A DNA stretch of 64,000 nucleotides. It comes from Candidatus Omnitrophota bacterium (GTDB taxonomy: Bacteria > Omnitrophota > Gorgyraeia > Zapsychrales > JBAZNR01). This document shows, in pieces, positions 29,086-51,552 of this stretch. Below the pieces are notes generated by a model that was given only the letters and a program-made list of their open reading frames with translations, was not told the origin of the DNA and ran no database searches. The stretch's first letter is position 1. Every line of letters starts with the position of its first letter. A program made the position numbers and the translations under genes. The stretch covers positions 79,449 through 143,448 of the forward strand of contig JBAZNR010000003.1 of assembly GCA_041649175.1 (NCBI GenBank), given 5' to 3'.

Positions 29086-29112
29086 TTAGCACTCTGAATT
29101 TTAGAGCGCTAA
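29086..29112 (+). promoter_or_regulatory. CIRCE operator copy 1 (HrcA binding site, one mismatch)
   Basis: TTAGCACTC-N9-GAGCGCTAA versus the consensus TTAGCACTC-N9-GAGTGCTAA. Confidence 0.7.
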
Positions 29113-29120
29113 AAAAATTC

Positions 29121-29149
29121 TTGACAAAATTTTTGATTTTCGGTACATT
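29121..29149 (+). promoter_or_regulatory. groESL sigma70 promoter
   Basis: TTGACA (29121-29126), 17-nt spacer, TACATT (29144-29149). The -10 box overlaps CIRCE copy 2. Confidence 0.55.
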
Positions 29150-29174
29150 AGCACTCTGAAGTTAAGAGTGCTAA
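29148..29174 (+). promoter_or_regulatory. CIRCE operator copy 2 (perfect consensus)
   Basis: TTAGCACTC-TGAAGTTAA-GAGTGCTAA exactly matches the CIRCE consensus, immediately upstream of groES. Confidence 0.85.
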
Positions 29175-29237
29175 CTTTGTTTAGCGGGAAATTTTGAAAA
29201 GTTTTTCAAGTTCAACATTTTAAAGGAGGTGTTTGTC

Positions 29238-44838: not shown

Positions 44839-45059
44839 CCGGAGGGCCGATAAATTTAAATTCCTCCGGAATTTAAATTTGCATATCGGGGTTATCCCGA
44901 ATTTTGTTTTGGGCAAAATTCGGGATAGGGATCAATAAGCTTGCCTGAATAGGTTTCCTAAAAGGGAGAACTGGACTGATGGCGCGAATCTGAAGATAAT
45001 TTCTCTAGTGGCTATATAGAAGAATTATCTTCACTGAGCGAAAGAAGTCCAGTTCTCCC
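44839..45059. repeat. cluster of nested perfect palindromes in the convergent recO/helicase intergenic region
   Basis: (i) AAATTTAAATTCC-TCC-GGAATTTAAATTT (44852-44880), nested in CCGGAGG...CCTCCGG. (ii) TATCCCGAATTTTG-7nt-CAAAATTCGGGATA (44893-44927). (iii) GGGAGAACTGGACT (44964-44977) ... AGTCCAGTTCTCCC (45046-45059), enclosing GAAGATAATT (44992-45001) ... AATTATCTTC (45023-45032). Confidence 0.5.
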
Positions 45060-45084: not shown

Positions 45085-47286
45085 TTAAGCTTTAGATAAT
45101 TTTTCCGCTTGCGCCTGAATATCTTTGGCGAGAGTTTTTCCGATTTGAGGGATTTGGGCGAGTTCATCGAGGCCGGTAAGCTTAAGGTCAGAAAGCCGTT
45201 TAAAACCTTTGGAGAAAAGATTTCGAGCGCGAACGCGTCCCACACCTTTCAGGCTTACTAATTCCAAAAGTTCTTCGCGAATTCCGTAATGAACCTGACG
45301 GCGCAGGTCTTCTAAGGTAAACGTTAAATTGCGGAATTTAAAAAGGTCCGCGATCACACCGGCCGCGTAAAGGATCCATCCGGTGGATTCCACGTGACGG
45401 TGAATGTCACCGGGCCCGACGCCAAAATCATCGCAAAGCGTTTCTTCCTTTTCTTCATTGATCCAACGGTAGAGAAGTTGTGTTGTTTTAAGAGAAGCTA
45501 AATAAAAATAAAGGTCTTCTAAGGCCGCCACATCGTTTTGCGTTACGATCAGGCTGTCGTGATTGCCATCGGCGAACTGTTCCAACTTTTCATAATCATC
45601 TTTTCCGATATGGAGAAGTTCTGAATCAGGACAGCAGCAGCTTAAGTGCAAAAGCCCTATCGCGGAAAATGATCTTTTCTCTTCCGCTTTCTTTAATCCG
45701 TCGCGCAAAATAATTCCGGTCAAAGGATCAATATAAAGGCGGCTTACACATTGGCCGAACGGTGTGGCAAAATATTTAAATCCGTTTTTCTCCACAAAAT
45801 CTTCCTTGTGAAGAAAATCAAAGATCTGGCTGATCATTTCGATCAAATTTCCGGTGCGTTTTTGATGCGCCAGAAAGGTGTGTGAAATAAATTCGAACAT
45901 TTCATTGATATCATGAACATATCCGGCGGCAATGGACGATAAAATGTGCATACGAAGCGCTGATTCATTATCTAGCTTTGAAATGACGGGCTCAGTTTTG
46001 GCGTTGATGTAACGGTCAAACAAGGCACTTGATTCCGAAAATGTTTTGGCAATAATAACGGCTTCGCCGTATTCGTCATATTTGGGCCGTCCGGCGCGTC
46101 CGGCGCATTGTTTATATTCAAAGGCCGGAATGTAAGCGGCACCAATACCTGCTTCATAACGTTTGCAATCGCGGATAATGGCTCTTCGGGCGGGGAGGTT
46201 AACGCCCGCCGCCAAAGTCGGCGTTGAGCAAATTACTTTGATAAGATTTTTCTTAAAACTATTTTCAATAAGTTTTCTTTGACCTGGTTTTAATCCGGCG
46301 TGATGAAAAGCGGCGCCGCAAACAATAACATCGGCTAATTTCCGGCAAATTTTTGTGGATTCATCGCGCGAACCAAGAATTTCTTTGGCAATGCGGGCGA
46401 GTTCTGCTTTTTCTTCCGGTGTTAACACCATAGCGGAAACTTCACTGACCAAGCGGCTGGCGGCTTGCGCGGAACGCCGGCTATTCACAAAAACCAAAAC
46501 CTGTCCTTTACCGCGCAAAGTATCAAGGGTAAGTTTGCTGACATCATCTTCGGGTTCTTCTTTAACAAGGCGCACGCCGTGTTTGTTAAAAACGATCTGC
46601 TCGTTAAAATAAACACCTTCTTTTAAGGGAACCGGACGCCAATCGCTGGTGACAAGCTCTGCTCCCAGCCAATCGGCCATTTCCTGGGCATTGCTGACCG
46701 TAGCGCTTAAAGCTAATATCTGAACGTTTGCGTTAAGCTGCTTGATGCGGGCGGTTAATATCTCTAAAGTGGGCCCGCGGGAACCGTCATTGATAAAATG
46801 AATTTCGTCTAAGACAACAACCTTTAAATTATGGATAAGCCATTTAGCCCGGAAACGTAAAAGCGAATCAACTTTTTCGGCGGTGGCGATGAGGATCTGA
46901 TAGCGGTTAAGGAAATTTGTGGGGCTGTCAAAATCTCCGGTGGCGATGCCGACTTTAATTCCCAGGGGCTCATATTTTTCTTTAAATTCGTCGAATTTTT
47001 CACTGGCTAAGGCTTTTAAAGGAGCGATGTAAAGGCAACGGGCATCATCTTGCAGAATGGCTTTGATCATACACAGCTCGGCAATGAGTGTTTTTCCGGC
47101 GGCGGTGGGAATAGCCAAGAGCAGATTTTTGCCTTCCAAGACGCCTTTTTCAATGGCGGCTTCTTGAGGAGGATAAAAGTTTTTGATGCCCGAATCAGTG
47201 ATGATTTTGGTCGCGGAAGCGGGGAAATTATGCTTTTGTAAAAGTTCTTCGGCGTTCATAGGAATAATAGGCATTACTTCTAACAT
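45085..47286 (-). CDS. Hel308/Ski2-like superfamily-2 DNA helicase
   Basis: 733 aa. Motif I AIPTAAGKT, motif II VVLDEIH, SAT, a winged-helix/ratchet region and a C-terminal helix-hairpin-helix domain (LVSLKGVGRVRARNLFSKGF...LAQIPQIGKTLAKDI), as in archaeal Hel308. The only long minus-strand gene in the window apart from exeAB. Confidence 0.75.
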   Translation of the reverse strand: MLEVMPIIPMNAEELLQKHNFPASATKIITDSGIKNFYPPQEAAIEKGVLEGKNLLLAIPTAAGKTLIAELCMIKAILQDDARCLYIAPLKALASEKFDEFKEKYEPLGIKVGIATGDFDSPTNFLNRYQILIATAEKVDSLLRFRAKWLIHNLKVVVLDEIHFINDGSRGPTLEILTARIKQLNANVQILALSATVSNAQEMADWLGAELVTSDWRPVPLKEGVYFNEQIVFNKHGVRLVKEEPEDDVSKLTLDTLRGKGQVLVFVNSRRSAQAASRLVSEVSAMVLTPEEKAELARIAKEILGSRDESTKICRKLADVIVCGAAFHHAGLKPGQRKLIENSFKKNLIKVICSTPTLAAGVNLPARRAIIRDCKRYEAGIGAAYIPAFEYKQCAGRAGRPKYDEYGEAVIIAKTFSESSALFDRYINAKTEPVISKLDNESALRMHILSSIAAGYVHDINEMFEFISHTFLAHQKRTGNLIEMISQIFDFLHKEDFVEKNGFKYFATPFGQCVSRLYIDPLTGIILRDGLKKAEEKRSFSAIGLLHLSCCCPDSELLHIGKDDYEKLEQFADGNHDSLIVTQNDVAALEDLYFYLASLKTTQLLYRWINEEKEETLCDDFGVGPGDIHRHVESTGWILYAAGVIADLFKFRNLTFTLEDLRRQVHYGIREELLELVSLKGVGRVRARNLFSKGFKRLSDLKLTGLDELAQIPQIGKTLAKDIQAQAEKLSKA

Positions 47287-47339
47287 AAAAGGGAAGCGAT
47301 GTCAATGAAGCCAGCGTTATCTCTTCGTCGTTTATTTTA

Positions 47340-47368
47340 TTGACCGGAAAATTTAAAGCTATTATAAT
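47340..47368 (+). promoter_or_regulatory. sigma70-like promoter for dtd
   Basis: TTGACC (47340-47345), 17-nt spacer, TATAAT (47363-47368). Confidence 0.45.
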
Positions 47369-47428
47369 CTTAAAGTATTGAATTTAAATATATTTAGAAA
47401 TATTCTTGTCATCCCGCCGGAGAGTTTT

Positions 47429-47872
47429 GTGAAATTAGTTATTCAAAGAGTTAAAAGCGCCGAAGTTGCCGTTGACAAACAAATTGTCGGGAAGATCAAG
47501 GCAGGAATGCTTGTATTTTTAGGCATTGCCAAAGGCGACGGCGACAGGGAAGTTGATTATCTTACCGAAAAGATCCTTCAATTACGTATTTTTGATGACG
47601 CGCAAGGTAAAATGAACCGCTCTATTCAGGAAGCGGGCGGGGAATTTTTAGTCGTTTCGCAGTTCACACTTTTGGGAGATTGTGATAAAGGCCGCCGCCC
47701 GTCTTTCGACGGAGCGGCGGCCCCTCATTTAGCCGAATCGCTCTATAACCAGTTCGTGGAAAAACTCCGTAGCTTTGGCGTGAAAGTGGAAACCGGAAAA
47801 TTCCAGGCGATGATGGACGTTTCTTTGGTGAATGATGGCCCCGTCACCTTCATTTTAGAGAGTAGAAGTTAA
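47429..47872 (+). CDS. dtd: D-aminoacyl-tRNA deacylase
   Basis: VKLVIQRVKSAEVAV...GMLVFLGIAKGD...SQFTLLGD...NDGPVTFILES (SQFTL and NxGPxT motifs). GTG 47429 gives the canonical N-terminus. The track ORF starts at an upstream in-frame TTG, inside the predicted promoter. Confidence 0.8.
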   Translation: MKLVIQRVKSAEVAVDKQIVGKIKAGMLVFLGIAKGDGDREVDYLTEKILQLRIFDDAQGKMNRSIQEAGGEFLVVSQFTLLGDCDKGRRPSFDGAAAPHLAESLYNQFVEKLRSFGVKVETGKFQAMMDVSLVNDGPVTFILESRS

Positions 47873-47906
47873 AAAAGTACGTGTCCCCGGAAATTCAAAA
47901 TTGATA

Positions 47907-48064
47907 TGAGGCGATGTCGAGAGATTATTCATGTGCTGCTGATCCAGCAGCAAAGTACTCAGAGGCTCACTTAAGCCGTATGGATCATTGATGTTTGCAA
48001 TTTCTTGCATCTTTGATTCTTGCATCAAGGGCAGTAAGCAAAAATAGTTCTCGACGTCGCCTTA
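47907..48064 (+). ncRNA. candidate retron msr-msd non-coding RNA
   Basis: The segment GGCGATGTCGAGAG (47910-47923) pairs with TTCTCGACGTCGCC (48048-48061), with two G-U pairs, and the stem is extendable to about 17 bp. This is an a1/a2-like arrangement ending 9 nt before the RT ATG. Internal stem-loops include TGCTGCTG-ATC-CAGCAGCA (47934-47952), GGCT-CACTTA-AGCC and a TTGATG...CATCAA hairpin carrying a TCTTGCATC direct repeat. Confidence 0.5.
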
Positions 48065-48073
48065 GGATTTATA

Positions 48074-49552
48074 ATGAACATTAAATTAAATAAGTCAGCC
48101 AATGTTCTTAAAGAAAAATTCAATGCTTTACAGTCAAATTACGACCTAGCGAATTTGCTGGAAATTCCATATGCACATCTAACATATTATTTATACGGCA
48201 TTAAGGAGGAAAGAAAATATACACAAATTCAAATACCAAAACGAAGGAGCGGCAGTAGAACAATTTCTATTCCTTCTGATGGCTTAAAAATAATACAGGG
48301 GAAGTTGAATCAAATTTTTCAAGCCGTGTATGTTCCGCGATTTTGTGTGTTTAGCTACATCAAAGGCGGAGATATTGTTAAAAACGCTCGAAAACATTCT
48401 GGTCGAAAATATGTTTTTAAGATAGATTTAGAAAATTTCTTTCCTTCAATTAATTTTTGGCGAGTTCGCGGTATGTTCAAGGCCAATCCGTATAGTAAAA
48501 ATGATGAAATCTCTACCGCATTAGCTAAGCTATGCTGTCTCAAGGATGAACTCCCTCAGGGGGCTCCTACCTCACCGATTATTTCAAATATGATTTGCCG
48601 AAAAATGGATTCTGAACTTATAGGTTTGGCTAGAGAAAACCGATGCGACTATACGCGATACGCTGATGACTTAGTTTTCTCCACTTCTCTCAGAAATTTT
48701 CCAGTGGATATAGCTGTGGTGAAGTCAGGCGAAGTTTTTCCGGGAGAAGAGTTGGTAAACGTAATTACTGGGAATTTCTTTAAAATTAACTTGAATAAAG
48801 TTCGGCTTCAGACTGCAAATCGCCGGCAAATTGTTACAGGGTTAGTTACTAACAAAATTGTTAATGTGAAGCGGAATTATTTAAATCAAATTAGGGCAAT
48901 GATTCATGCTTGGGATAAATTTGGATTTAACGAAGCCGAAAAAGTTTTTCAAGATAAATTTGATAAATATCGAGCTGTATTTAAGGCTCTTCCCTCATTT
49001 CGCTGGGTCGTAGGGGGGAAAATTGAATTCGTTGGCTTTGTGAGGGGCAGGGAAAGCAAAGTTTATCGATTGCTGAAATATCAATTTCGCAAGCTAATTG
49101 CCAGAGATTTTCCAGGAGAAAGAGAGAAAATAATGAGTCATGAGTTTTCTGCTTTTATCTGTCATGCTAGCGAGGATAAAAAGGCCATTGCAAAACCACT
49201 CGAGAAGCGACTTATCGGCAAGGGTTTTGATGTCTGGTTTGATGAGAGTCAGCTTCGAGTGGGAGATAGTTTGAGGGCAAAGATTGATGGTGGATTGAGG
49301 AAATCGAAATATGGAATTGTTATTTTATCTAAATCTTTCTTTGAAAAGAAATGGCCACAAGCGGAGCTTGATGCGTTAGTCACCTTGCAAAATACTGATG
49401 GCAGGAAGAGGATACTTCCTATCTGGTATAATATTGAGCAAGCTGATGTTGAAGCGTTTAGCCCTATGTTAGCAGCGCTTGTTGGCTTGCGAACTAAAAT
49501 TCTACATCTTGATGAAATTGTTGAAAAATTAGCGGACGAGCTAAAAAACTAA
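48074..49552 (+). CDS. retron-type reverse transcriptase fused to a C-terminal TIR domain
   Basis: RT motifs: RTISIPSDGLKIIQGKLNQIF, KIDLENFFPSI, LPQGAPTSPIISNM, YTRYADDLVFS, and NRRQIVTGLVTNK containing the VTG triplet characteristic of retron RTs. The C-terminal 135 aa (FICHASEDKKAIAKPLEKRLIGKGFDVWFDESQLRVGDSL...YGIVILSKSFFEKKWPQAELDAL) follow the TIR-domain pattern including the conserved Glu. Coding GC is about 25-35%, well below the flanks. Confidence 0.85.
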   Translation: MNIKLNKSANVLKEKFNALQSNYDLANLLEIPYAHLTYYLYGIKEERKYTQIQIPKRRSGSRTISIPSDGLKIIQGKLNQIFQAVYVPRFCVFSYIKGGDIVKNARKHSGRKYVFKIDLENFFPSINFWRVRGMFKANPYSKNDEISTALAKLCCLKDELPQGAPTSPIISNMICRKMDSELIGLARENRCDYTRYADDLVFSTSLRNFPVDIAVVKSGEVFPGEELVNVITGNFFKINLNKVRLQTANRRQIVTGLVTNKIVNVKRNYLNQIRAMIHAWDKFGFNEAEKVFQDKFDKYRAVFKALPSFRWVVGGKIEFVGFVRGRESKVYRLLKYQFRKLIARDFPGEREKIMSHEFSAFICHASEDKKAIAKPLEKRLIGKGFDVWFDESQLRVGDSLRAKIDGGLRKSKYGIVILSKSFFEKKWPQAELDALVTLQNTDGRKRILPIWYNIEQADVEAFSPMLAALVGLRTKILHLDEIVEKLADELKN

Positions 49553-49589
49553 TAATCTGCTAGTAATTTCTAGGATGCGCGCTTAATTC

Positions 49590-49700
49590 ATGGCTAAGTT
49601 TATCGACACTCACGTTCATCTTGATCAAGTCGAAAGCATTACCGAAGGAAAAACTTGGCTTAGCCGCGTCGAAGGGTTTATTGTGGAGAGTAAGAGTTAG
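49590..49700 (+). pseudogene. truncated duplicate of the tatD 5' end (36 codons)
   Basis: MAKFIDTHVHLDQVESITEGKTWLSRVEGFIVESKS-stop aligns with the intact TatD N-terminus at 50425 (MLKLIDTHAHLDQIENITEELKLAVQAGVEAVV). 14 of the first 19 residues are identical. Shared nucleotide blocks are atcgacactcacg and cattaccgaag. Confidence 0.5.
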
Positions 49701-49717
49701 CAATTAAGCAAAGTGTC

Positions 49718-49734
49718 CGTGAGGTTGCCTCACG
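49718..49734 (+). terminator. short hairpin plus T-rich tract after the tatD fragment
   Basis: CGTGAGG-TTG-CCTCACG followed by ...GTTATTTTAAATT. Confidence 0.3.
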
Positions 49735-49790
49735 TAGAGCGTTATTTTAAATTCAAGGAATGACGAGAAATAATACAGGGGTAGCTTAAA

Positions 49791-50384
49791 ATGGAATTAA
49801 TATTCTTTATTTCAATTGTTATTGTGGGCGTTATAACTACCGTAATTAGTTTTATCCCATCAAAGAAGATGCTAAAAGGTATTAAAATTACACTTTTTGT
49901 CGTAATAATCCTATGCCTAATATTCCAAGCTTGGTATGGATGGAACGACAAAAAAGCATCTCACGTTAAAGATCTTAAAGATGCATGGTACCAAGATGAA
50001 TCCTTGCGGGGTCAAGCATTAATTTCGGACGATATCAGGCAACTTAAAGACAAGGAAAAGAAGGGGCTGTTAAGCGGCGATGATTATTTGTTATACATAG
50101 CAAGGTATTTAGAAAGCATTGATCAAACTTTAAAATTTCGAGATGGGAAGAATACTTGGGAATGGATTACTGCATATTATAATGAAGTAAGTAAAATTCC
50201 TTCATATTTTTCTTTGGCGGATTGGAAGGAAGCGGAGAAGTTAATTTATGGTTCAATGGTTAATGAGATTGATGATCATTTTGCGGCCAGAGGAAGATCC
50301 GGAGGTGGGGTACGACCGAAAGTACTAGAGATATTTAAAACAGAACGCGAAAGAACTATAAAAGCAAAAGAGCTGGAAAAATGA
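49791..50384 (+). CDS. hypothetical protein with two N-terminal TM helices and a charged cytoplasmic domain
   Basis: MELIFFISIVIVGVITTVISFI...ITLFVVIILCLIFQAWYGW, then a 140-aa soluble domain with no motif I recognise. Low GC like the RT gene. Confidence 0.4.
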   Translation: MELIFFISIVIVGVITTVISFIPSKKMLKGIKITLFVVIILCLIFQAWYGWNDKKASHVKDLKDAWYQDESLRGQALISDDIRQLKDKEKKGLLSGDDYLLYIARYLESIDQTLKFRDGKNTWEWITAYYNEVSKIPSYFSLADWKEAEKLIYGSMVNEIDDHFAARGRSGGGVRPKVLEIFKTERERTIKAKELEK

Positions 50385-50424
50385 GAGTAACAGATTTTGA
50401 ATTTTGGGAATGTATACCTAACTT

Positions 50425-51201
50425 ATGTTAAAACTCATCGACACTCACGCCCACTTGGATCAGATTGAAAACATTACCGAAGAACTAAAGCTTGCCGTGC
50501 AGGCGGGGGTTGAGGCAGTGGTGGCGGTTGGCGTTGACTTAAAATCCAATCAGAAAAATTTGGAGCTTAAAGGCAAAGCACAAACGCCGAAAATATTTAC
50601 CGCGCTGGGCATTCATCCGCAAAGTTTGGAAGTTTTTGATGAAGAGGAAATTGAAAAAGGCATTCGGTTTATCCGCGAACATATTAAAGACGCGATCGCT
50701 ATTGGCGAAATTGGTTTAGATTTTTGGTATAAGTGGGCCAAGAAAGACGAAATAAAAAAAGAACAGCAACGCGCTATTTTTAAACGCCAACTTGAAATTG
50801 CCGCAGAATTTAATTTGCCCGCTATTATTCACAGCCGCGGTACGTGGAAAGAATGTTTAGATATGGCTCAGGCCGCCGGCATCAAGAAAGCCAACTTTCA
50901 TTGGTATAGCGGCCCGGAGGATATTTTGGATGAAATTATAAAGTGTGGGTATTTTATCTCCGCGTCTCCCGCGGTTGCCGGCAGTCCTCAGCATCAAAAA
51001 GCAGTTTTGCATGTTCCCATTGAACAGCTGCTCATTGAAACGGATTCGCCCGTATTCTACAGAGAAGGCGAAAATGGTTTTCGTGCCGGGCCTAAAGATG
51101 TCGCGCGCACCTTAAAGCATTATTGCGCGCTGACGAGTATGGCACCGGACAAAGCGGCGGAAATCTTTTATCAAAACTCAAAAAGGTTTTTTGCGATATA
51201 G
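50425..51201 (+). CDS. tatD: TatD-family metal-dependent hydrolase/DNase
   Basis: LIDTHAHLD, AIGEIGLDF, IHSRG, ETDSP motifs. 258 aa. Confidence 0.85.
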   Translation: MLKLIDTHAHLDQIENITEELKLAVQAGVEAVVAVGVDLKSNQKNLELKGKAQTPKIFTALGIHPQSLEVFDEEEIEKGIRFIREHIKDAIAIGEIGLDFWYKWAKKDEIKKEQQRAIFKRQLEIAAEFNLPAIIHSRGTWKECLDMAQAAGIKKANFHWYSGPEDILDEIIKCGYFISASPAVAGSPQHQKAVLHVPIEQLLIETDSPVFYREGENGFRAGPKDVARTLKHYCALTSMAPDKAAEIFYQNSKRFFAI

Positions 51202-51205
51202 GTGA

Positions 51206-51457
51206 ATGATGAGAAATATTCTTAGCAATAGAAAAGCTTTTGTTTCTTTGATCGGGCTTTTTTTAGCGATCATCATTATCGCTTTTGTCGGTTATAAGGC
51301 TTACGGAGTTTATTTGGGGAAACCTTCATCCGGCCAAAGATCGTCAGGGCAGGACCATAGCATCGCAACGCAAGCAGGAACTTTTCAACATACAAAGGAA
51401 AGAATAAGAGATATTAATAAAATGCTTCAACAGCAAGCGCAACAATTGCCGGAATAG
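51206..51457 (+). CDS. small membrane protein, hypothetical
   Basis: 83 aa, one TM (FVSLIGLFLAIIIIAFVGY), Gln/Ser-rich tail. Confidence 0.3.
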   Translation: MMRNILSNRKAFVSLIGLFLAIIIIAFVGYKAYGVYLGKPSSGQRSSGQDHSIATQAGTFQHTKERIRDINKMLQQQAQQLPE

Positions 51458-51518
51458 GCATTTTGCGAGCCTTTTGCTCATGGGCAGGCCCAAATTCGCT
51501 TCAAGGCTCACAAAATGC
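51458..51518 (+). promoter_or_regulatory. long imperfect hairpin upstream of purU (attenuator/terminator-like, no U tract)
   Basis: GCATTTTGCGAGCCTT (51458-51473) pairs with AAGGCTCACAAAATGC (51503-51518), 15 of 16 bp. The 29-nt loop contains GGGCAGGCCC. Confidence 0.3.
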
Positions 51519-51552
51519 CTCTTAATGATCGTTCACTTTAGAAAGGAACAAA

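Follow-up and report, generated by a model that had tools for sequence, protein, structure and literature searches.

A probable type XII (RT-TIR) retron and its non-coding RNA family in Candidatus Omnitrophota

The RT-TIR gene and the structured RNA upstream of it

The locus described here lies in a 64-kb stretch of a 659-kb contig from a metagenome-assembled genome of Candidatus Omnitrophota; this stretch is hereafter named the window, and positions are those of the window unless another contig is named. Between the stop codon of dtd (47872) and the ATG (48074) of a gene coding for a reverse transcriptase (RT) fused to a TIR domain, there is a spacer of 201 nt. This spacer is predicted to encode a structured non-coding RNA (ncRNA), on the same strand as the RT gene. 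A first-pass annotation had proposed that the two form a retron, the RNA being an msr-msd transcript bracketed by the complementary a1 and a2 segments. Our analysis indicates that the locus is almost certainly a retron, and very probably one of type XII, i.e. an RT-TIR protein working with its own msr-msd ncRNA, with depletion of NAD+ as outcome.

The RT-TIR gene (48074 to 49552, plus strand) codes for 492 residues, with the RT at positions 1-349, a flexible linker at 350-355 and the TIR domain at 356-492. All the motifs from which the fusion had first been recognized are present in this open reading frame (ORF): the RT blocks IPSDG, KIDLENFFPSI, QGAPTSP and YADD, the VTG-containing segment NRRQIVTGLVTNK, and the C-terminal series FICHASEDK...VWFDE...KKWPQAELD. 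We aligned 42 RT-TIR homologs, the window protein included. Y196, D198 and D199 of the catalytic motif YADD (residues 196-199, positions 48659-48670, plus strand) are invariant in this alignment, as are the QGxPxSP block and Q252, T255 and G256 of the VTG region (RQxVTG), the V being nearly so. In the TIR domain, the active-site segment W427-P-Q-A-E431 (49352-49366, plus strand) aligns with ...DWTNYELD of AbTIR; E431 (49364-49366) is invariant among the homologs and W427 is kept in at least 90% of them. All 40 family-invariant columns are intact in the window protein, which itself belongs to the set that defines them.

Profile searches gave a consistent picture. Pfam RVT_1 matched residues 54-245 (E = 1e-16, above cut-off) and TIR_2 matched residues 361-455 (E = 1.2e-20, 74.6 bits for a cut-off of 28), and the best PADLOC matches were the two RT-TIR_XII models, over residues 9-491 (E = 2.7e-146), which bears out the RT-TIR assignment. 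In the ranking of PADLOC hidden Markov models, these were followed by RT-Protease_XI (8e-124) and RT-Toprim_I-C, which matched the RT part only; such a ranking is consistent with an RT of clade 8 in the classification of Mestre et al. 2020. Retron models of PADLOC and NCBIfam scored 200 to 490 bits on the protein.

Known structures point the same way. A profile search of the PDB placed the retron Ec67/Eco2 first for the RT part (E = 2.5e-92), and AbTIR first for the TIR part (7.7e-49), where TcpB/BtpA and PdTIR were also retrieved (~1e-45 to 1e-49). The alignment with AbTIR extends over the whole domain at ~50% identity, with the Trp and the Glu retained. The AlphaFold model had a mean pLDDT of 91.4, and its sole segment of three residues or more below 50 was the hinge 350-355 between the two domains. 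Foldseek, run on this model, ranked Eco2 chains first and superposed the TIR domain on that of AbTir (7uxu) with a root-mean-square deviation (rmsd) of 1.1 Å and 50% identity. Whether by profile or by Foldseek, the nearest solved structures for the RT part were all retron RTs, and no RT-TIR retron was found among the matches listed from the PDB. As judged from sequence and modelled structure, the gene encodes a retron-clade RT whose catalytic motif is intact, tethered through the flexible linker to a TIR domain that resembles AbTIR and has retained the catalytic Glu.

The predicted msr-msd RNA extends from 47907 to 48064 on the plus strand (158 nt), from the 5' end of a1 to the 3' end of a2. 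Its closing stem is formed by a1 (47907-47923) and a2 (48048-48064), which pair over 17 bp, 14 of them Watson-Crick and 3 G-U, and whose arms are 124-126 nt apart. The complementarity first noticed, that of GGCGATGTCGAGAG (47910-47923) with TTCTCGACGTCGCC (48048-48061), including two G-U pairs and extending to about 17 bp, was thus found as described; the core returned by a repeat-finding tool was 47909-47922/48049-48062. The a2 arm ends 10 nt before the RT start codon and touches the ribosome-binding site TAGGA (48063-48067). The pair scored 39, a value reached by none of 300 dinucleotide-preserving shuffles of the spacer (mean 19.8, standard deviation 2.6, maximum 30). Among inverted repeats of the window with arms 60-260 nt apart, it ranked second, after an operator pair of the CIRCE type (controlling inverted repeat of chaperone expression).

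Folding of the upstream RNA, proposed at the outset as a check, was equally clear: RNAfold gave -63.3 kcal/mol for 47900-48073 (z = -5.19), and 0 of 200 shuffles were as stable. The interval 47907-48064 was closed by a helix of 22-23 bp, whose single interruption was a bulged G47923. No Rfam 15 family was found at gathering score for this RNA, region 47000-50500 giving just chance-level matches (E ~2 or more); over the whole window, one tRNA only reached the gathering score. A minus-strand ORF of 57 aa (47855-48028) overlaps the RNA, and was dismissed, as the region evolves as paired RNA.

Several parts can be delineated between the two arms. In the minimum free energy (MFE) structure, an inner stem pairs ATTATT (47924-47929, plus strand) with AATAGT (48042-48047); it corresponds to helix H2 of the RNA family described below. 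The msr hairpin UGCUGCUG-AUC-CAGCAGCA (47934-47952, plus strand) comes next, with a perfect 8-bp stem and the family-conserved UGAUCC loop motif. The conserved CACUUAAGCC motif (47968-47977, plus strand) follows, and its GCC (47975-47977) pairs with GGC (48030-48032) to form helix H4, which closes the msd region. The interior (47978-48029, plus strand), the predicted core of the msd template, folds as an imperfect hairpin and is unconserved among homologs, with conserved flanks. The conserved 3' segment AGUAAGCAAAAAUAGU (48033-48047, plus strand) has the family consensus A-AAG-n-AGAAUAC, in which A, G and A columns are invariant, and contains the inner stem's 3' strand. The candidate branching (priming) nucleotide is G47923 (plus strand), the last nucleotide of a1, placed directly 5' of the inner stem and bulged in the MFE structure.

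The RNA family in related retrons

Ten close RT-TIR loci were fetched one by one, two large RT-motif scans of genome and metagenome contigs having given mostly non-TIR RTs. Each of the 10 loci had its own a1/a2 pair, of 9-20 bp, with arms 125-145 nt apart. The 3' arm ended 5-42 nt before the RT start, except at one locus (L163) where it overlapped the start by 5 nt. Arm sequences were unrelated between loci (GGCATCTGCAGG, AAGCATCCGCAGG, TGCTGGGCACTTGCG, CCGCAGGTCAATT, TGGGTGTTTGGGGG, GGGGCTGGT), so that the position of the inverted repeat is kept and its sequence changed, in support of the a1/a2 reading of the first-pass annotation. Conservation between the arms was confined to the 5' third and the final ~20 nt, the middle being variable. 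The family shares the short inner stem TATTT/AATAC, a hairpin whose loop contains UGAUCC, the CUUUAAGCC motif, and A-AAG-n-AGAAUAC before a2.

A covariance model, named R1, was built from the window and the 10 close loci (11 sequences), and run over 175 loci and the window, matches being counted at E ≤ 0.01. With both strands scanned, its sole match in the window was 47907-48059 (100 bits). Outside the training set, 40 loci were matched, every one on the RT strand, and the match ends ranged from 45 nt within the predicted RT ORF to 111 nt before the RT start. The RNA family follows RT genes into genomes where the upstream genes are unrelated, and is always found directly 5' of related RT genes, on the RT strand.

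Covariation of the stems in homologous loci, another check suggested with the retron proposal, was detected. In the alignment of the 51 sequences, which is fitted to the model structure and in which pair counts are consequently biased upward, 93.6% of the cells pair, versus 27-48% when 3' partners are slid by 1-3 columns; changes on both sides are seen in 24 of the 25 pairs, and the covariation score is 0.722 versus 0.233 after shuffling. For the 40 non-training loci alone, 94.6% of the cells pair versus 29-47% when slid, with 88-97% for each of the four helices. All 5 pairs of helix H2 (TATTT/AATAC) have changed on both sides. Helix H3, the msr hairpin, is 97.6% paired, with compensatory changes between UA and CG, and H4 covaries, its columns 116 and 232 being CG in 11, GC in 10 and AU in 5 sequences; for both helices, the window sequence is in register. 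In a MAFFT/RNAalifold consensus of the 11 sequences, partial misalignment of a1 and a2 left a covariation term that was negligible (-0.44 kcal/mol).

RT-TIR proteins are encoded at 19 of the 51 model-positive loci. To characterize the others, 10 non-TIR RT proteins from such loci were scanned against PADLOC and Pfam. The ncRNA family was present upstream of RT-trypsin protease genes of type XI (L026 and L102), of full-length RT-Toprim_I-C-like genes (L175, L088 and L092, 44-56 bits), and of an RT-Schlafen/AlbA_2 fusion (L003, 3992-5575). It also preceded RTs with C-terminal regions of ~170 aa unmatched in Pfam (L084, 3001-4548; L006, 4001-5566) and stand-alone RTs of ~360 aa (L083, L004, L002 and L001). 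Some of these non-TIR architectures may be unclassified retron types. The list of homologs also contains related RT proteins with PF04471 and PF19960 domains. The first-pass annotation had credited the window with a distinct ncRNA of its own. This held for the msd interior, which is unique, and for that part only: the msr half and the general architecture are those of a conserved family, which is found as well before RTs fused to protease, Toprim and other domains.

Such a distribution over effector types agrees with the modularity described by Mestre et al. 2020, in whose scheme types XI and XII both fall in RT clade 8, the ncRNA type being given as 'nd' (not determined) for each. Khan et al. 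2024 report that they validated ncRNAs of clade 8, type XI; two retrons of type XII, one from Salmonella Muenster and one from P. aeruginosa, appear in their supplementary table along with expression vectors. Because of this listing, the type XII ncRNA should be regarded as already known to the field, even if it is not in Rfam 15.

We then compared R1 with characterised retrons. The E. coli Retron-TIR, whose annotation is 'TIR domain-containing anti-phage reverse transcriptase', occurs in 83 complete genomes, and has a1 ACGGCTCTGCC and a2 GGCAGAGCCG 115 nt apart, upstream of the gene. With default filters, R1 missed this RNA; with filters off, it aligned to exactly the a1/a2 interval, with a weak score (17.1 bits, E = 1.3e-4 for 601 nt). 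The alignment with the Ec67-family retron RNA, GCACATGCAGG-TAG-ATTTGTTGG...GAGTA-CCTGCATGTGC, was end-to-end and also weak (10.7 bits, E = 0.007).

In the Ec67-family RNA, a1, the linker G and AUUUG are found at places equivalent to those of R1. G47923 matches the G preceding AUUUG; with respect to the inner stem and the msr hairpin, it is placed like the linker G in close homologs. We take G15 of Ec67 to be the G immediately 5' of AUUUG. Synthesis of the multicopy single-stranded DNA (msDNA) of Eco2/Ec67 is primed at G15 (PMC12916289). By position, its equivalent would be the linker G in close homologs and, in the window, G47923, which makes the latter the candidate priming G.

A small insert between dtd and tatD

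The retron lies within a low-GC segment of ~2.55 kb (47873-50424), between dtd and tatD, which carries the ncRNA, the RT-TIR gene, a pseudo-fragment of the tatD 5' end and an ORF of 197 codons (ORF197). GC content is 0.34-0.40 over ~47750-50500, versus 0.41-0.47 on either flank. A contig from a related Omnitrophota genome (L178) carries, in the same order as the window, a recO-like gene, a helicase gene, dtd, tatD, a small ORF and purU, with 40-76% protein identity. In this contig the site is empty: there is an overlap of a few bases between dtd and tatD, and no cargo separates them. Segment 47873-50424 is for this reason an insertion relative to that genome. The comparison indicates that the retron came in by horizontal transfer, within a small insert that separates dtd from tatD.

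The pseudo-copy of the tatD 5' end (49590-49700, ~110 nt), which lies upstream of ORF197, shares ~76% identity with the beginning of intact tatD (50425-50530). On the contig with the closest TatD (L177), a tatD 5' fragment is followed by helix-turn-helix and Fic genes, then by the intact tatD (1530-1586 and 2820). This layout resembles that of the window with a different cargo, and L178 has no cargo at all. In Omnitrophota, the 5' end of tatD may be a site of repeated integration. A search for direct repeats flanking the insert gave just short, chance-like matches.

ORF197 (49791-50384, plus strand) encodes a predicted membrane protein of 197 aa, hydrophobic over its first ~50 residues, for which Pfam and PADLOC gave no match; none of the other fetched loci has a homolog. 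We ruled it out as a partner of the retron, given that it lacks both a known domain and a counterpart near the relatives.

The retron is outside any defence island. Its neighbours are genes for a Hel308-like helicase, Dtd, TatD, a PurU-like protein and a DUF2339 membrane protein. Across 10 fetched loci, homologous RT-TIR genes adjoin restriction-modification, Shedu (SduA_C), HEPN_AbiV, AIPR and integrase genes, as is expected for defence genes. The genes downstream of the RT-TIR homologs differ at every one of these loci.

Other features of the window were recorded on the way. The helicase gene (45085-47286, minus strand) codes for a 733-aa protein of the Ski2/Hel308 type, with the Pfam 'Archaeal helicase, domain 4' and a C-terminal helix-hairpin-helix, in a contig that is bacterial; it has 76% identity and conserved synteny in the related genome L178. 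It partly matches the PADLOC models for Hachiman HamB helicases, which is probably generic helicase similarity. Strong inverted repeats were found between an ORF end (44808) and this helicase gene (45085), GGGAGAACTGGACT/AGTCCAGTTCTCCC at 44964-45059, and just 3' of an 83-aa ORF, AGGCATTTTGCGAGCCT/AGGCTCACAAAATGCCT at 51456-51520. The CIRCE-type repeats lie at 29086-29175, as TTAGCACTC-N9-GAGCGCTAA and TTAGCACTC-N9-GAGTGCTAA on either side of TTGACA...TACATT, upstream of ORFs of 99 aa and 546 aa, the sizes of groES and groEL; this looks like an ordinary HrcA operator arrangement.

Assignment, proposed mechanism and alternatives

The closest known system is the Retron-TIR of type XII. Like the window gene, it joins in a single protein a retron RT, at the N-terminus, to a TIR domain, at the C-terminus, and an ncRNA bearing a1 and a2 lies directly upstream, on the RT strand, where R1 matches the E. 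coli RNA. There are differences: the window protein is ~38% identical to the E. coli one, the RNA similarity is marginal (17 bits), and the host is an uncultivated Omnitrophota bacterium. Two other retrons have a related RT and a different effector. In Eco2/Ec67 (type I-C, RT-Toprim), which has the closest solved RT and an RNA that fits R1, the effector is likewise fused after the RT thumb in a single protein; this effector is a Toprim nuclease cutting tRNA, instead of a TIR. In type XI, which belongs to clade 8 and has the ncRNA family in common, the RT matches nearly as well, and the C-terminal domain is a trypsin-like protease.

As for the TIR domain itself, it is close to the NADases AbTIR, TcpB and PdTIR over its whole length, and keeps their W-x3-E segment. 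These enzymes are secreted or stand-alone proteins with coiled-coil N-termini, and a role in virulence or none known, whereas the window TIR is tethered to an RT. Thoeris (ThsA/ThsB) also uses a TIR domain in anti-phage defence, as we propose here. Its TIR protein has ThsA as an adjoining partner; no ThsA-type gene (SIR2, SLOG or Macro) adjoins the window gene, whose neighbours encode the helicase, Dtd, the 197-aa protein, TatD and the PurU-like protein, and the proposed sensor is instead the RT/msDNA module. The match to a Thoeris type III protein was faint (23 bits for a cut-off of 220). The locus is a complete but divergent addition to a known anti-phage system rather than a new kind of system, type XII being already known as a class.

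The following mechanism can be proposed. The ncRNA would be co-transcribed with the RT gene, possibly from the dtd promoter, and the RT would bind the msr hairpin. Reverse transcription would be primed from the 2'-OH of the G at the inner end of a1, with G47923 as candidate, and the msd part would be copied into branched msDNA; this part is placed roughly at 47975-48047, the exact start and stop of reverse transcription not being derivable from sequence. The complex of RT-TIR and msDNA would hold the TIR domains inactive, until a phage factor cuts, modifies or binds the msDNA and frees them to assemble. Assembled TIR domains would then hydrolyse NAD+, and growth of the infected cell would stop (abortive infection). 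AbTIR is an NAD+ hydrolase according to its PDB molecule name. In a secondary paper, the Retron-TIR of Shigella dysenteriae NCTC2966, a system of Gao et al. 2020, is reported to protect E. coli from phage T5. A commentary on Gao et al. 2020 states that, in the retrons tested, defence needs both the synthesis and the structure of msDNA. In Eco2, the fused effector is caged in a trimer for which msDNA is the scaffold, and is freed when msDNA is degraded by the phage nuclease DenB. The evidence for this trimeric cage, and for DenB as trigger, comes from Eco2 only, and for the window they are assumed by analogy.

Several observations weigh against this reading, or at least temper it. The locus is described here from its sequence and from predicted models. 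Its activation step rests on the analogy with Eco2, because no mechanism was found published for type XII in the literature searched. The nearest relatives of the protein, two of which come from Omnitrophica, are ~50% identical at most. Its top NCBIfam match, Retron_TIR_antiphage (NF042941), has 442.9 bits over residues 23-467, below the equivalog cut-off of 600 bits. This score explains why the GenBank name is just 'TIR domain-containing protein', and by NCBI's rule the window protein reads as a divergent relative standing outside the equivalog.

On the RNA side, the msd interior is a poor hairpin, and to the upward bias of the pair counts mentioned above is added the fact that the window's own outer and inner stems are out of register in the model alignment (7 of 11 outer pairs). 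This is because, in the relatives, a 5' linker of 3-4 nt separates a1 from the inner stem, and the window has no equivalent of it: compared with its closest relatives, its outer and inner stems form a nearly continuous helix of 23 bp. Evidence for a1/a2 in the window is therefore their direct complementarity, and covariation of the outer stem comes from the other loci. Finally, a scan for sigma-70 promoters between dtd and a1 gave no convincing site directly upstream of a1. The sole sigma-70-like site of the spacer (47901-47928, 9 of 12 matches) overlaps a1, and transcription from it would start inside the RNA. The only strong sigma-70-like promoter near the retron precedes dtd (47340-47368, TTGACC-17-TATAAT, 11 of 12 matches). 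The retron RNA may thus depend on read-through from dtd, or on a type of promoter outside the coverage of the scan.

Could the RT be something other than a retron RT, either another defence RT or that of a group II intron, with the repeat acting as a terminator or attenuator of dtd, or as a cis-regulatory leader? The repeat does come directly after the dtd stop codon, and NCBIfam returned weak matches to Drt2, Drt3a, Drt4 and the group II intron maturase. These matches are however far below their cut-offs (19-29 bits versus 200-450 for the three Drt families, and 51 bits versus 300 for maturase TIGR04416), when retron models reach hundreds of bits, and Rfam matches include no intron or riboswitch family. 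The arms of the repeat are too far apart to recall a terminator, no terminator-like site was found in the spacer, and the RNA accompanies the RT gene into genomes with other upstream genes, and aligns with the msr-msd region of the Ec67 family. Taken jointly, these alternatives are extremely unlikely. We judge it very unlikely as well that the locus is a decaying or domesticated remnant, retron-like in sequence, that has lost msDNA production and defence. Such a remnant would agree with a single isolated copy in housekeeping surroundings, with no evident promoter of its own, a score under the NCBIfam cut-off, and an adjoining tatD pseudo-fragment which shows local rearrangement. Yet the ORF is intact over 492 codons and keeps the 40 invariant columns (40 of 40, in a set to which it belongs), its AlphaFold model has a high pLDDT (91.4), and the RNA combines 100 bits on R1, a perfect msr hairpin and a 17-bp closing stem.

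Two further alternatives accept a retron and concern its effector. AbTIR-family enzymes yield 2'cADPR, and both AbTIR and the ThsB proteins of Thoeris make an isomer of cyclic ADP-ribose (cADPR). The window TIR, which shares with AbTIR ~50% identity, the W-x3-E spacing and a fold superposable at 1.1 Å, might then serve mainly as a signal generator, a cADPR isomer activating a separate effector encoded elsewhere in the genome, in which case NAD+ depletion would not be the killer. We consider this unlikely, since no ThsA-like gene with SIR2, SLOG or Macro domain adjoins the retron, ORF197 has neither known domain nor homolog at other fetched loci, the genes downstream of homologous RT-TIRs are all different, and PADLOC handles type XII as a single-gene system. 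A broader proposal, which we hold as doubtful, is that one ncRNA-RT chassis serves across an environmental branch of retrons, with effectors freely swapped and some architectures unpublished; the Omnitrophota TIR could also emit a cADPR signal, instead of doing no more than deplete NAD+. This proposal is partly anticipated by Mestre et al., for modularity and clade 8, and by Khan et al., for the clade 8 ncRNAs. An RT-TIR retron of type XII, with NAD+ depletion as the probable outcome, remains the reading that we favour.

This retron leaves the understanding of how retrons work unchanged, and what goes beyond routine annotation is limited to the shared-ncRNA covariance model and to the recurring cargo at the tatD 5' end. 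With it, Omnitrophota, an under-sampled phylum for which metagenomes are the only source, gains a well-documented retron, and, as a member of type XII with a clean RNA and protein model, it is a reasonable candidate for structural work. For the wider family, R1 provides a covariation-supported ncRNA model for RT-TIR, RT-protease and RT-Toprim-like retrons, which could improve retron annotation, and could supply defined a1/a2, msr and msd boundaries for engineering.

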